Shown: positions 37,018 to 43,798 of the stretch, in pieces | Position numbering within the stretch: position 1 is the first letter of the stretch | How the letters are laid out: every line of letters begins with the position of its first letter | Source: a virus | Lineage: Duplodnaviria > Heunggongvirae > Uroviricota > Caudoviricetes | Strand: one strand, 5' to 3' | DNA length: 45,855 nucleotides | IMG/VR virus record: IMGVR_UViG_2531839662_000038 | Program-made: the position numbers and the translations under genes | Notes under the pieces: model-generated | What the model was told of the DNA's origin: nothing | The model's database searches: none | The model's input: the letters and a program-made list of their open reading frames with translations, nothing else

Positions 37018-37467
37018 ATGTTTATGCTCACTTGTTTTGATGTCGCCGACTACTTCTTGGCGCATTGCGATGAAGAAAGTGGCGACATTATCTCTAACCT
37101 AAAAATTCAGAAGTTGACGTATTATGCCCAAGGGTTTTCTCTGGTTCTTCTGGGTAAGCCGCTATTTAATGAGAAAATTGAAGCCTGGATGCATGGGCCA
37201 GTAGTTCCTGAATTGTATCGTAAATATAGGGACTGTGGTAACGGAGCTTTACCTGCGCCAGAAAACTTTGACGCTAAAAAATTCAGTGAAGATGAAATTG
37301 AATTGCTGGATGAGGTGTATAAAGTTTATGGTCAGTTTTCTGCCTGGAAACTGCGCAATATGACTCACGAAGAGCAGCCATGGAAAGATGCTTACATTGA
37401 GGGTGCGGTTAGCCAAGAAATCACACTTGATTCTATGAAAGGTTTTTTCAAAACGTTAATTAACTGA
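37018..37467 (+). CDS. Panacea-domain (DUF4065, SocA/GepA-like) protein, PanA-antitoxin-like
   Basis: 149-aa ORF; motif KIQKLTYYAQGFSLVLLGKPLFNEKIEAWMHGPVVPELY typical of DUF4065. Confidence 0.65.
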   Translation: MFMLTCFDVADYFLAHCDEESGDIISNLKIQKLTYYAQGFSLVLLGKPLFNEKIEAWMHGPVVPELYRKYRDCGNGALPAPENFDAKKFSEDEIELLDEVYKVYGQFSAWKLRNMTHEEQPWKDAYIEGAVSQEITLDSMKGFFKTLIN

Positions 37468-37472
37468 CGTGT

Positions 37473-37895
37473 ATGTCTAGAGTTAAGGGAAGAATAAAAC
37501 AGAGGGATAAAGAGAGCTCTGCTACTGTTGGCCTCTCTATCCATCACGAATCTCATGATGTAGACAAAAGTCCGCCTGTATTTTCTCTTAGATACCTACA
37601 AAAGGGGTATTGCCTAGATTGCTGCCAAAAGCATGAAAAGGCAGCATTTGCAGATAGGCTGTTCAGGTTAAGTCGGATGTCATGGGATGAGATACGAAAA
37701 TCTGATAAACACGGGCTTGGGACGGAAAAAATTGCCAGAAACGCGATAAAAGCTCCGATTCCTAAGCATGTTACTCAAGATGTGGATTTCATTGCGTTCA
37801 GATTTTGCTCTAAGGCACCTATGGTTGGTTATAAGATAGGAGCCACTTTTTATGTCTTATGGCTCGACAGGGAGTTCAAGCTATACAAGCACTAA
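37473..37895 (+). CDS. Unrecognised protein, operon partner of the Panacea-domain gene (candidate toxin/effector)
   Basis: 140-aa ORF 5 nt after the upstream stop; basic; no family recognised; followed by a strong terminator. Confidence 0.5.
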   Translation: MSRVKGRIKQRDKESSATVGLSIHHESHDVDKSPPVFSLRYLQKGYCLDCCQKHEKAAFADRLFRLSRMSWDEIRKSDKHGLGTEKIARNAIKAPIPKHVTQDVDFIAFRFCSKAPMVGYKIGATFYVLWLDREFKLYKH

Positions 37896-37939: not shown

Positions 37940-38143
37940 TTAACCAAATCGATCCTTAAAGCGTCTATCGCTGTTGCGTCTCTCCATTTTACTGTTGCAG
38001 TACGGACAAAGATGCTGTTTCTTTCCATCGATAGTCCATGTGAAGTACTTTTTCTTAAATCCAGCACCACAGATATCGCAACTTCTTGGTTTAAACATAC
38101 TGGCTATGAAGATAAGAACAACAAATCCTATGATCCATTCCAT
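37940..38143 (-). CDS. Small membrane protein with zinc-ribbon (CxxC...CxxC)
   Basis: 67-aa ORF; TM helix WIIGFVVLIFIASMF; CDICG...CPYC. Confidence 0.4.
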   Translation of the reverse strand: MEWIIGFVVLIFIASMFKPRSCDICGAGFKKKYFTWTIDGKKQHLCPYCNSKMERRNSDRRFKDRFG

Positions 38144-38479: not shown

Positions 38480-38797
38480 CTATTTTTTCTCAGAGCTCAT
38501 ATTGTAATAGGTGGTATAAATAGAGATTGATTTCTGACATGCTTCAAGAAATTGCTGCGGAGTCATCCCGAGCCTTGCTTGCTCTGTAGTAAGGAATCTC
38601 TGTAAGAATTCATTCCCACCTGGCATGTTTGTAGATTCTTGGAATATTGCCATTTGTTTGATTGCACCACACATACCAGCCATTTTAGAAGCTATCATGA
38701 GGCCTTGTATTTCATCAAAACTGCTATCGTCTGATTTTGTTTCTGCGTTAGCTATGCTCGAGAGACACAGGAGCAATAGGATAGCGATACGTTTCAT
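38480..38797 (-). CDS. Small secreted/periplasmic protein with signal peptide
   Basis: 105-aa ORF; signal peptide MKRIAILLLLCLSSIANA; start overlaps mnt stop (ATGA). Confidence 0.5.
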   Translation of the reverse strand: MKRIAILLLLCLSSIANAETKSDDSSFDEIQGLMIASKMAGMCGAIKQMAIFQESTNMPGGNEFLQRFLTTEQARLGMTPQQFLEACQKSISIYTTYYNMSSEKK

Positions 38798-40309: not shown

Positions 40310-40336
40310 GACCCAGCTTCGGCTGGGTTTTTTTAT
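40310..40336 (+). terminator. Intrinsic terminator after ant
   Basis: ACCCAGC-TTCG-GCTGGGTTTTTTT. Confidence 0.75.
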
Positions 40337-40392
40337 GCCCAAAATTCACCGTGGCCACGCTGCGGCGATTCATTGTATCTGGAGCAAATTAA

Positions 40393-42387
40393 ATGACAGA
40401 CATTACAGCCAATGTGATCGTATCGATGCCTTCGCAACTTTTCACTATGGCGCGTTCTTTTAAAGCGGTTGCCAATGGCAAAATTTATATCGGTAAAATT
40501 GACACTGACCCGGTGAATCCTGAAAACCAGATTCAGGTTTATGTGGAAAACGAAGACGGTTCTCACGTTCCTGTTTCGCAACCAATCATCATTAACGCTG
40601 CTGGTTATCCTGTATATAACGGACAGATTGCCAAATTCGTAACTGTGCAAGGCCATTCTATGGCTGTTTATGATGCGTACGGTGCGCAGCAGTTCTATTT
40701 TCCTAACGTCCTGAAGTATGACCCTGACCAATTAAGGCAAGAATTAGCTTCTGACAGAGGAGCAACATTATCATTAAGTCAGATAGCTACTTCTTACGGC
40801 CTTGATTTCTCGTTAGGCGGTGTATGGCGGGAGGGGGCGTTATCTAATGTTGATAACTGGTGGTGGTATAATAATAAAATCTACACCGGTGGTAGCGGCA
40901 CTCTTCCGTCATCTCCTGCTTTGCCATGGTACGAAGTGACGGTAGCAGATTATATTTCTGTTGCTCAATTTTTCCCCATTACTGGTGATCCAGCGGCAGA
41001 TAACTCAGCTAGCTTTAATGCTGCTGCAGCAGTTGCTTTATCGGCAGGAAAGAGGCTGTTTGTCCCTGCAGGAACTTACTATGTTAAGTCACCAGTTGAT
41101 TTAACAATAGGCACTGTTGACCTATTCGGGGATGGCGTTGAGAAGTCATTCATTATTGCGGGGAGTGGGTTCACTGGAGAGACAGTTGTCAACATGTACT
41201 ACGAAACTGACTCTATAAGACGTAGCACATCTATCTCTCACGTTACAGTTGATGGGAACAACATCGCCAACTATGCTTGCCGAATTCAATATGTTCACCT
41301 AGGAAGAACCCATAATTGTCGTTTCATCAATGGCGTGGTGGCGAACTTCTATACTATAAACGACTGGCTTAATACCTATGATTGCTGTTCTTTTGTTCCT
41401 GCGCCAAATCGCGGAGTTCACCTTGCTGGGGCTAACAACCGCGTAACGTTCAATAACTGTGGATTTGCATCAAATAAGGTCGGTGAATATGCCTTTTATG
41501 CTTCTGGTACTTCCCCTATTGAAGGTTTAAGCTTAATTGGATGTGACCTTGAGTTCGGCATTGGGCATGGCATGTACTTAAATACCCGAGTGACCAATAT
41601 TGTTGGCGGGTACTATGGCGAAGCGATACAAGGCGATATCTTTACGGTTCCAGATGGAGTAGTAAAAATAAGCGGTGTAAATGCTTTTGTAGGATATTAC
41701 AATGAGGGAGGAAGGTTTGTTGTTCTTGACAATGATGCTGTAGTTAAGGTTGATAGTTGCTGGATTGCAGATCAGGGCAACTTTAAACTTTCATTACTTG
41801 CATCAAGCACTGACAACAGGGCTCATGCTGTATTTACTAATTGTTATATTGGTGCAACTGTGTCTGGCCCACAAGTTATGGAAGGAGATTGTTTAGGCAA
41901 GATTAATATGAGGACGTTTGCAGAAAGCAGAGCAATCCTTTATACAATGAACAATACTGGTAATACAGTAACCAGAAGCAGATACAACTCAATAGGAGCA
42001 AAAATAACCATTAATACCGTAACGACCCCTAGTTCTAACAAGCTATCACTTAATACTAAGATAAAAGACAGAGGGTGGAAGGTTAACGACCGGGTATACT
42101 TAATTGTTACTTATGAGAGTAATGTTGATATAAATATTTATTTAAGCAGTTCGATATATGCTGCATCGGATGCAACGCTATTTGGAACTTTACCATCAAC
42201 AAATGGTTCTTTATCTACGTGTTATATTGCTAATAATATTATTCCGGAAAATACATCTGAGATATTCGAGTTTTATGTAAATGGCGCTGGTGTTGGCGAT
42301 TACTTTGCTATTCAGGATGTTACTCTTACAGACAGGTCATTCACTTTCAGTGGAACAACTATGACCACTTTTGCTAAGGCTGAATAA
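40393..42387 (+). CDS. Tailspike: P22-type N-terminal head-binding domain fused to a divergent receptor-binding domain
   Basis: 664-aa ORF; first ~115 aa ([59 protein letters not shown]...) match remembered P22 gp9 N-terminus; remainder unrelated to P22. Confidence 0.85.
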
Positions 42388-42392
42388 TTAAC

Positions 42393-42420
42393 AGAAAAGG
42401 TGGATCACTCCACCTTTTCA
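42393..42420. terminator. Bidirectional hairpin terminator between convergent tailspike and integrase genes
   Basis: AAGGTGGA-TCAC-TCCACCTT flanked by A-run and T-run; the integrase stop codon lies in the loop. Confidence 0.65.
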
Positions 42421-43562
42421 TCAAGCCAGTCCGCCCACCACTGCATCATTTCTCTGCGCTTATCGAGATACTGAGCATGGTTGTAAATCCCACGCACAGA
42501 TCCGCCGTTGGCATGTGCCAGTTGCACTTCAATAGCATCAGCAGGCCATTCGTGCTCGTTCGTAATCGTGCTGAATTCATGCCTGAATCCGTGACCGCTT
42601 TCCAGACCTTCATAGCCGATTTGTTTGATCACAAGCAGTACAGCGTTCTCGCAAATTGGCTTCTTCTTATCGTTGCGCCCGGCAAAAACAAACTCTGATA
42701 CTGGTTTGGTGATTGAGCTTAGCGTAGTGAGAAGTTCAACCACCTGGTCTGACATAGGAACCACATGAATTTTGCGTCCCTTCATCACACTGGCGTCGAT
42801 GGTGATAATCCTGTTTTCAAAATCGACGTTCTTCCATAGCATGGAACGAAGCTCTTTCGTTCTTAGGGCTGTGTAGCGTAAAACTTTGGTCGCAATGAGC
42901 GATACGATGCTTCCTGAAAATGTTGCCAGTGCTTTGTTGAATGCCGGGATCTGGTCTGCAGGAAGAAACGGGAAGTTCTTCTTGCGGTATCCCTTCATGG
43001 CGTCAGCAAGGTCAGGTGCCGGGTTATATTTAGCCCTGCCGGTGACAATAGCGTAACGGAAAACCTCGCCGCATCTTCTGCGTGCTTTGTTGGCTCGCTC
43101 CATTGCACCGCGATCTTCAAATCTGCGGATTACTTCCAGCAGTTGCATCGGCTCAATATCCTGAATCTCAAGACCGCCGATGATGGGTAAAATGTCGTCA
43201 TCAAACATTTTTGCAAGTTCAGTCGCATACCCTACTGACCAGACTTGCTTCTTGTGTTCGTACCATTCCTTGTAAATTGCACTAAAGGAATTGTTGTTAG
43301 ACGAAGCCTTTTTCGCTTTTACCGGATCGATGCCAACCGAGATGTCTTTCCTCGCAGTCCATGCTTTATCCCTTGCCTCCTGCAAAGTCATAAGCGGATA
43401 TTTTCCTACGGTCAGGATTTTCTCCTTACCGTCAATCTTGTAGCGAAGCTGCCATACCTTTTTCCCTGACACAGGGACATAAAGGTACAGGCCATTACCA
43501 TCGAGTAGGCGGTATGGTTTTTCTTTCGGCTTTGCTGCTTCAATCTGCTTAACGGTGAGCAT
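42405..43562 (-). CDS. intS: Tyrosine integrase, P4/IntS type with N-terminal arm-binding domain
   Basis: 385 aa from MLTVKQIEAAKPKEKPYRLLDGNGLYLYV (the ORF track extends to a GTG at 43598); catalytic region with HGFRH and a C-terminal Tyr; lies about 160 bp from argW. Confidence 0.85.
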   Translation of the reverse strand: MLTVKQIEAAKPKEKPYRLLDGNGLYLYVPVSGKKVWQLRYKIDGKEKILTVGKYPLMTLQEARDKAWTARKDISVGIDPVKAKKASSNNNSFSAIYKEWYEHKKQVWSVGYATELAKMFDDDILPIIGGLEIQDIEPMQLLEVIRRFEDRGAMERANKARRRCGEVFRYAIVTGRAKYNPAPDLADAMKGYRKKNFPFLPADQIPAFNKALATFSGSIVSLIATKVLRYTALRTKELRSMLWKNVDFENRIITIDASVMKGRKIHVVPMSDQVVELLTTLSSITKPVSEFVFAGRNDKKKPICENAVLLVIKQIGYEGLESGHGFRHEFSTITNEHEWPADAIEVQLAHANGGSVRGIYNHAQYLDKRREMMQWWADWLDEKVE

Positions 43563-43723
43563 GGGTAAAAATCCGGTGGGTAAAATTATTTTATCCACTT
43601 TTTACCCGTCATGGAGTGCGGCTGTCAACGATCTGACGCGAACCATTACGAACTGTGAATCTACGGAAGGCTTGATATTCAGGGGATTTTGCGGACTGGT
43701 ACGGATGGGAGCGAACTGATAAA

Positions 43724-43798
43724 TGGTGTCCCCTGCAGGAATCGAACCTGCAATTAGCCCTTAGGAGGGGCTCGTTATATCCATTTAACTAAGAGGAC
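43724..43798 (-). tRNA. argW: tRNA-Arg (anticodon CCU), argW
   Basis: 75-nt sequence on the minus strand: GTCCTCTTAGTTAAATGGATATAACGAGCCCCTCCTAAGGGCTAATTGCAGGTTCGATTCCTGCAGGGGACACCA, cloverleaf-compatible, anticodon loop CUCCUAA. Confidence 0.9.

Follow-up and report, generated by a model that had tools for sequence, protein, structure and literature searches.

A P22-like tailspike with an uncharacterised beta-helical receptor domain and a probable association with Escherichia coli serogroup O141

A tailspike gene (positions 40393-42387, plus strand; ATG start, 664 codons) was analyzed in a 45,855-nucleotide stretch of Caudoviricetes DNA (IMG/VR record IMGVR_UViG_2531839662_000038; this whole stretch is referred to as the window). 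The encoded protein of 664 residues was shown to be a tailspike of the P22-like class by every testable feature, that is, its PF09008 anchor, its gene position and its right-handed parallel beta-helix. Its anchor is of the standard kind and its receptor domain is of a type not yet characterised, an ordinary host-range module swap with a probable new specificity. The protein is very probably a functional polysaccharide-recognising tailspike, and the explanation that best fits the data as a whole, which we favour by a little, is that of a P22-like tailspike acting as an O-antigen depolymerase directed against E. coli serogroup O141.

The head-binding (virion-attachment) domain, residues 1-113 (40393-40731, plus strand), matched all 113 profile positions of PF09008 Head_binding (E 8.9e-67). 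In a comparison with PDB chains it aligned without gaps to P22 gp9 (86/113 residues, 76% identity) and to Sf6 gp14 (104/113, 92%). The identity was higher to Sf6 gp14 than to P22 gp9, and the domain therefore falls into the Sf6/HK620/CUS-3 branch and is not near-identical to that of P22. An initial annotation, made from the sequence alone, had described the match to the P22 gp9 N-terminus as almost residue for residue; the domain is certain from PF09008, but the closeness to P22 was overstated. The same annotation found the remaining ~550 residues unlike the P22 endorhamnosidase. P22 chains in the PDB did not align past residue ~119 and no P22-tail Pfam family was hit, which agrees with that statement, but the swapped part is smaller, ~485 residues, as the shared region reaches residue ~178.

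The region between anchor and receptor domain was found to be a separate junction module of 65 residues (residues 114-178; 40732-40926, plus strand), common to tailspikes with other anchors and other receptor domains. In the alignment, which covered three types of anchor and at least two of receptor domain, residues 118-175 (L118-P175) were invariant. Protein P0018 was identical to the window tailspike up to residue 179 and unrelated beyond, and a 763-residue protein of strain ETEC4090 had a different N-terminus, with a weak match to the T7-fibre N-terminal domain, was homologous from residue ~120 and was identical to the window tailspike from residue 146. A nucleotide search with the tailspike gene in 5,426 complete E. 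coli genomes gave three match classes: more than 1,000 genomes matched only nt 1 to ~355 (the head-binding domain), six records matched nt 1-521, and the receptor-domain portion was matched in seven genomes, in six of them over the full gene length. We conclude that residues 114-178 constitute a junction module, and that recombination at its edges or inside it exchanges the parts on either side. The swap point had been placed at residue ~115; this position was not upheld, since the shared region extends to residue ~178 in the closest relatives.

In the structural model described below, the junction module was predicted as a short helix and a small beta-sheet (predicted local distance difference test score, pLDDT, 57-78). 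Searched alone against the PDB it gave no significant match, with SH3-domain matches below threshold only (E 0.04-0.6), which may be taken as a hint. Among 50,697 phage records the module was found in one, Erwinia phage MIF8. The prophage of ETEC4090 that harbours the gene of the 763-residue protein (locus L009, 5343-7634) is located near yfgI/pdeF and is not of the P22 type. Downstream of this gene there is a 3′ integrase fragment, which suggests that the receptor cassette was imported together with flanking DNA.

Downstream of the junction module, the protein consists of a right-handed parallel beta-helix, the presumed glycan-binding and glycan-cleaving domain (residues ~179-505; 40927-41907, plus strand), and a C-terminal beta-sandwich (residues ~506-664; 41908-42384, plus strand). 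The sole Pfam match past the head-binding domain was to the generic pectate-lyase-like PF12708 (residues 194-311, 37.1 bits compared to a cut-off of 27). A PDB sequence search aligned the N-terminal domain and a weak stretch to Sf6, and the receptor domain matched no solved tailspike. In the 50,697 phage records, tblastn of residues 176-664 gave nothing at E<=1e-3, and all 182 hits obtained with the full tailspike were due to the N-terminal domain. No NCBIfam model matched the receptor domain. A match to a model of glycoside hydrolase family 28 was not found, though the Prokaryotic Genome Annotation Pipeline names the ETEC4090 copy as a member of that family. In PHROGs, phrog_7173 spans the full length of the protein and gives no annotation further than the name 'tail spike protein'. 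Besides, phrog_8280 (colanic-acid degradation) was considered and rejected, as it was matched through the N-terminal domain only and the receptor domain alone gave no match. In public collections the exact protein comes exclusively from E. coli, under the labels 'phage tailspike protein' or 'hypothetical', and its cluster (P0001) has 64 member sequences from dozens of contigs. Thus, the C-terminal region does not align throughout with a characterised tailspike in the PDB, tblastn and NCBIfam searches, and the annotated domain swap is supported by the shared anchor together with a C-terminal region that has no characterised match.

Relatives of the receptor domain were found in a much larger collection. 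A HMMER search with residues 176-664 against 1.84 billion cluster representatives gave 107 relatives at E<=1e-3, 63 of them at E<=1e-10, and most of the 107 aligned across the full 489 residues at 20-30% identity. The closest relative, P0005, was 57% identical and had a different anchor. The N-termini of 66 aligned family members included PF18668 TSP1/gp66-type domains (10 proteins), T7 tail-fibre N-terminal domains (five) and endosialidase N-terminal extensions (two), and 46 of the 66 matched PF12708 as well. A profile search of a word-indexed protein database gave only 16 hits and added little beyond the HMMER scan. Judged from these alignments, the receptor domain belongs to a family of phage tail receptor domains that occurs in virions of several types, with the window protein as its P22-anchored representative.

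The fold was predicted with AlphaFold2. A first model, built from a full-length alignment of 15 sequences, reached a pLDDT of 62 with an N-terminal domain scrambled by the heterogeneous anchors, and it was replaced by a monomer model of residues 114-664 based on 66 sequences (pLDDT 89.3; predicted template modelling score 0.83). This model was divided into the junction module, a beta-helix (residues ~187-500) and a C-terminal beta-sandwich (residues ~505-664). A Foldseek search with a full-length model gave the Sf6 tailspike as the top match. Nothing closer was detected among predicted viral structures, where the best match was an uncultured-phage 'pectate lyase superfamily protein' (19% identity, template modelling score ~0.5). 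The receptor-binding domain had been annotated as unrecognised. It is uncharacterised, with no sequence match to a solved tailspike, to the phage records or to an NCBIfam model, but it is recognisable as a PF12708-type beta-helix and as a remote homologue of the Sf6 helix.

This homology was detected with profiles. The family profile retrieved Sf6 gp14 from the PDB sequences (E 1.2e-20), and hhalign aligned window residues 176-371 with Sf6 residues 134-355 (probability 98.3%, E 2.5e-14). From these profile alignments, the first half of the beta-helix is taken to share ancestry with the helix of the Sf6 endorhamnosidase, and the confident alignment stops just before the Sf6 active site. Five acids of the helix were conserved among 54 family members, D273 (91%), D287 (72%), D385 (87%), E387 (89%) and E410 (96%), and H302, N348 and Y407 were further conserved residues in the family. 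Based on family conservation, the candidate catalytic carboxylates are D385 and E387 (in the motif CDLEF) and E410 (in YYGE), located on successive helix coils (41545-41622, plus strand). The spacing from D385/E387 to E410 is 23-25 residues, which equals one coil, and a one-coil spacing of carboxylates is typical of beta-helix glycosidases. In a forced global hhalign alignment of near-zero confidence, CDLEF was placed opposite LDLDY of Sf6 with E387 opposite an Asp, and the Sf6 Glu fell in an insertion. The catalytic pair of Sf6 is Glu366/Asp399, and we take the Asp opposite E387 to be D399 in mature numbering. D385, E387 and E410 are proposed as candidate residues, and the prediction of a hydrolase using D385/E387 and E410 stands at about an even balance.

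The distribution of the receptor domain, here called type A, was compared with that of O-antigen clusters in the 5,426 genomes. The O141 cluster, as in strain VG48B2, was detected in 14 records (13 strains). The type A domain had seven carriers, and five of them, VG48B2, P13-6, ETEC1716, ST12468 and ETEC4090, were O141 strains. The co-occurrence gave a Fisher exact p of 7e-13, a value that overstates the evidence since the genomes are phylogenetically non-independent. Within the O141 carriers the domain was found in four contexts: a P22-like prophage at argW in VG48B2, a prophage in P13-6 that has an intS pseudogene and lies on the ybhB/bioA side, a P22-like prophage ending at dacD in ST12468, and a non-P22 prophage near yfgI in ETEC4090, in which the same domain is carried on a different anchor. 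Across the lysogens the receptor domain showed 0-8 amino acid substitutions compared to a nucleotide divergence of 1-2% over the whole gene, which argues for a function under constraint by purifying selection. It had been stated that the specificity cannot be read from sequence. This holds for the sequence of the protein itself, but the genome distribution points to serogroup O141, and the assignment of the O141 O-antigen as receptor is given an even chance of being right.

The two carriers outside O141 were UMNF18 (O147) and ET245. The O147 cluster was found in seven genomes, of which UMNF18 alone had the tailspike. The O cluster of ET245 (fnlABC and a pyruvyl transferase) is unnamed, was present in only four genomes and was found in no other carrier. 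Specificity-changing substitutions in these alleles were considered and rejected, as the UMNF18 protein is identical to that of the window and the O141 alleles differ at 2-8 mostly conservative positions; the near-invariance of the receptor domain in all carriers argues against an allele-specific retargeting in UMNF18 or ET245. There was no support for a recent O-antigen switch of UMNF18 from an O141 lineage, the rfb flanks differing by 3-5% from those of VG48B2, in a test that is weak because the flanks are hypervariable. As a separate observation, wzzB was inactivated in both genomes, by an internal stop in UMNF18 (locus L005, 19430-20407) and by the insertion sequence IS1 in ET245 (locus L002, 23214-24968), which contained an additional IS1 between galF and wzx. 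UMNF18 is an older assembly of draft quality with several frameshifted genes or genes with internal stops, and its wzzB stop could be a sequencing error. The UMNF18 genome (NZ_AGTD01000001.1) contained two non-identical full-length tailspike copies, at 835210-837204 (ybhB/bioA) and at ~2879053-2884527 (argW/intS). The late region of the window was collinear with the first copy, and the right end of the window resembled the second.

Further receptor domains were found on the same anchor in O141 strains. All six records matching nt 1-521 were O141 strains, and their receptor domain (type B; the P0018 cluster) was unrelated to type A. Type B was present in eight genomes, all O141 (e.g., ETEC4073; locus L010, 4001-6085), with the same anchor and junction, and a variant, B′, shared only 85 nt more with type B. 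Altogether 10 of the 13 O141 strains carried A, B or B′, and three had two receptor types (A and B in VG48B2 and ETEC4090, A and B′ in ST12468). So this phage lineage, as it circulates among O141 hosts, bears several different receptor domains, and the target of type A may be the native O141 chain, a phage-modified O141 chain or a co-occurring capsule. In the type B prophage of ETEC4073, a 446-residue open reading frame (ORF; locus L010, 6153-7493) with a weak Wzy_C match (E 9e-5; 22.7 bits compared to a cut-off of 31.7) was located between tailspike and integrase, and in P13-6 an Acyl_transf_3 acyltransferase gene (locus L008, 10088-11203) was located near the tailspike copy. From their domain matches, both are possible seroconversion genes beside O141-associated tailspikes.

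Several findings weigh against an O141-directed hydrolase. Two of the seven carriers are not O141 strains, and the receptor domains of these two have 100% or 99.9% identity to that of the window. The unrelated type B is likewise confined to O141, so that an O141 association does not single out one enzyme-substrate pair. It may instead be that the receptor is a glycan that often accompanies O141 and not the native repeat, either a phage-converted O141 chain, as known from the relationship of the Salmonella phages epsilon15 and epsilon34, or a capsular (K) antigen of O141 strains from pigs. Such a history would fit the number of receptor domains, no fewer than two and probably three, found on the same anchor and junction in O141 genomes, some strains carrying two. 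It would also fit the Wzy_C-like ORF of the type B prophage and the acyltransferase gene of P13-6, with no conversion gene at that place in the window prophage. However, the Wzy_C score is below the Pfam cut-off, P13-6 and ETEC1716 have type A with no type B copy detected, and the O147 and ET245 carriers are explained no better than by a native O141 receptor; an accompanying glycan is thus considered unlikely. The domain might also recognise a structure that several serogroups, or even most E. coli, have in common. Examples would be a sugar motif present in all of them, colanic acid and other exopolysaccharides, and the O141 excess would then be due to circulation of a lineage. Such a target would account for an essentially identical receptor domain in carriers that span O141, O147 and a third O cluster lacking rhamnose genes. 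The confinement of all head-binding and junction alleles of this type to the same small set of genomes also fits a lineage effect. But a broad receptor predicts broad hosts, and the domain is present in only seven of the 5,426 genomes. The four prophage contexts in O141 strains, one with a different anchor, argue for selection by the host surface, and the receptor domain alone did not match the colanic-acid family phrog_8280. A common target is therefore regarded as improbable, and more so than an accompanying glycan.

With respect to the chemistry, two further results count against a hydrolase: the closest structural matches include epimerases and lyases besides hydrolases, and no catalytic residue is backed by a confident alignment, the local hhalign alignment ending before the Sf6 active site. 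The beta-helix might accordingly be a polysaccharide lyase or a mere binding module, to which we give a low probability. The motifs invoked for such a role are partly degenerate in the window protein (QYVH, ANNR), while D385, E387 and E410 are kept. Sf6 gp14, the only sequence-detectable homologue of known activity, is annotated as an endorhamnosidase in GenBank, and E387 lies opposite the Sf6 catalytic Asp, at the low confidence of the global alignment. An endorhamnosidase is a hydrolase.

For an O141-directed depolymerase, the following mode of action is proposed. Residues 1-113 would attach the protein, presumably a trimer, to the tail hub in the manner of P22 and Sf6, and residues 114-178 would serve as a homologous crossover region for the exchange of the flanking parts. 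The beta-helix (~179-505) would bind the host surface polysaccharide and most likely cleave it, and the beta-sandwich (~506-664) would cap the spike, perhaps with a part in trimer stability or in further sugar binding. The chemistry would most likely be endoglycosidase hydrolysis by the adjacent-coil carboxylates D385/E387 and E410. The most likely substrate would be the O141 O-polysaccharide, the repeat of which has been described as 'a branched three-residue backbone' (PMC11267873). A more far-reaching scheme, which we regard as speculative and rather unlikely, would combine two elements: the junction module would be a dedicated, portable adaptor that joins unrelated receptor domains to at least three anchors (P22 head-binding, TSP1/gp66-type and T7-fibre-type), and types A, B and B′ would reflect serial O141 seroconversion, in which one phage alters the chain by Wzy-like or acyltransferase genes beside its tailspike gene and another tailspike type targets the altered form, comparable to Salmonella epsilon15/epsilon34.

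An apparently complete prophage of the P22-like (Lederbergvirus) type lies at argW, and its late genes end with the tailspike gene. The ORF sizes at 22350-42387 of the window were collinear with those of a prophage annotated in E. coli UMNF18, the tailspike of which is identical to the window copy. The order in UMNF18 is small and large terminase, portal, scaffold, coat, gp4, gp10, ejection proteins, Arc repressors, Ant and tailspike. The tailspike gene thus follows immI (arc/ant) and closes a P22-type morphogenesis operon, ant being supported by PF10547 and PF10548. It is followed by an IntS-type tyrosine integrase gene (42405-43598, minus strand; PF00589, PF22022 and PF13356; annotated as intS in matching genomes) and by the tRNA-Arg(CCU) gene argW (43724-43798, minus strand), detected with ARAGORN and annotated in matching genomes, which is the attachment site at the prophage end. 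According to the annotations of matching genomes, the host genes yfdC and mlaA lie beyond argW. In related argW prophages, O-antigen-modifying genes (wsfD, acyltransferases) were found between tailspike and integrase, and none was present in the window prophage. Only 17 nt separate the two ORFs in the window, and therefore no seroconversion gene is located there.

A ribosome-binding site, GGAG (40381-40384, plus strand), was read from the sequence 8 nt 5′ of the tailspike ATG. A terminator scan detected a terminator-like hairpin with a T run 3′ of the antirepressor gene ant and just 5′ of the tailspike gene (40310-40336, plus strand), consisting of the stem-loop GACCCAGCTTCGGCTGGGTT at 40310-40329 followed by TTTTTAT. 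The scan also detected a palindromic hairpin (42394-42419) where the tailspike and integrase genes converge, and this hairpin extends into the 3′ end of the integrase ORF. The guanine-plus-cytosine content of the receptor domain was 40.5% overall and that of the C-terminal domain (41908-42384) was 35%, compared to 46.9% for the prophage. The low value of the C-terminal domain is consistent with a foreign origin of the receptor domain.

Some other ORFs of the window were recorded. In the immI region, an ORF with a SocA/Panacea antitoxin domain (37018-37467, plus strand; PF13274, E 2e-24) is followed after 6 nt by a 140-residue ORF without a Pfam match (37473-37895, plus strand). The pair occupies the place where P22 and the prophages of ST12468 and P13-6 have sieA, and it may act in defence or as a toxin-antitoxin system. 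Two small ORFs were found next to the Arc/Mnt-like repressor gene. One, of 67 residues (37940-38143, minus strand), starts with a hydrophobic segment and weakly matches a zinc ribbon, and the other, of 105 residues (38480-38797, minus strand), has a signal-peptide-like N-terminus, MKRIAILLLLCLSSIANA.

Tailspike receptor domains set the host range of phages and are used as serogroup-specific reagents for detection and for removal of capsule or O-antigen. F18-fimbriated enterotoxigenic E. coli (ETEC) of pigs cause post-weaning diarrhoea and oedema disease. O141 is among the serogroups reported for F18-fimbriated porcine ETEC (PMC11267873). No paper linking O141 with tailspike specificity was found in the searchable literature. 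If the O141 assignment is true, the protein would be a ready-made O141 reagent, and types A and B would be a natural pair for studying two unrelated enzymes that address one O-antigen. For the construction of chimeras, the junction module provides a defined point at which tailspikes could be spliced onto different podovirus anchors. Both the architecture and the way in which the tailspike evolves are as expected and leave the general understanding of tailspikes unchanged; what is added beyond a bare domain swap is a probable O141 association and a defined junction module common to several anchors.

In comparison with known systems, the window tailspike resembles Sf6 gp14 (PDB 2vbk, 7sg7/7ukj), with a head-binding domain 92% identical, a homologous first half of the beta-helix, and a gene that, as in Sf6, ends the late region beside the integration/conversion locus. 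It differs from Sf6 gp14 in showing ~22% identity over the aligned helix columns, with nothing confident past Sf6 residue 355 and C-terminal domains that do not align. In addition, Sf6 is without the 65-residue junction module and has an O-acetylase gene after the tailspike, where the window prophage has none. With the endorhamnosidase P22 gp9 (PDB 2xc1, 8tvr), the window protein shares a gapless head-binding domain (76%) and the plan of anchor, beta-helix and C-terminal domain, but its receptor domain is without sequence homology to the endorhamnosidase part of gp9. The closest structure, ORF18 of Geobacillus virus E2 (PDB 7chu, 'putative pectin lyase'), showed 17% identity, comes from a phage of a Gram-positive thermophilic host and covers the helix only, not the junction module or the C-terminal sandwich; no described activity was found in the literature on 7chu. 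E. coli phage tailspikes have been reported to combine a conserved anchor with an exchangeable receptor domain that tracks the serogroup, and the conserved boundary between them was suggested to be a hotspot of recombination (Pas et al., 2023; PMC10408124). The conserved boundary motifs were reported in lytic genera and not in Lederbergvirus/Uetakevirus prophages, and O141 was not among the serogroups to which tailspikes were assigned (PMC10408124). The record of the K1 phage CUS-3 (CP000711) contains a 'bsq1 boundary sequence' feature under the tailspike match. The window tailspike follows the same modular logic as the tailspikes of that study (PMC10408124), and the conserved element is here a protein-coding module of 65 residues.

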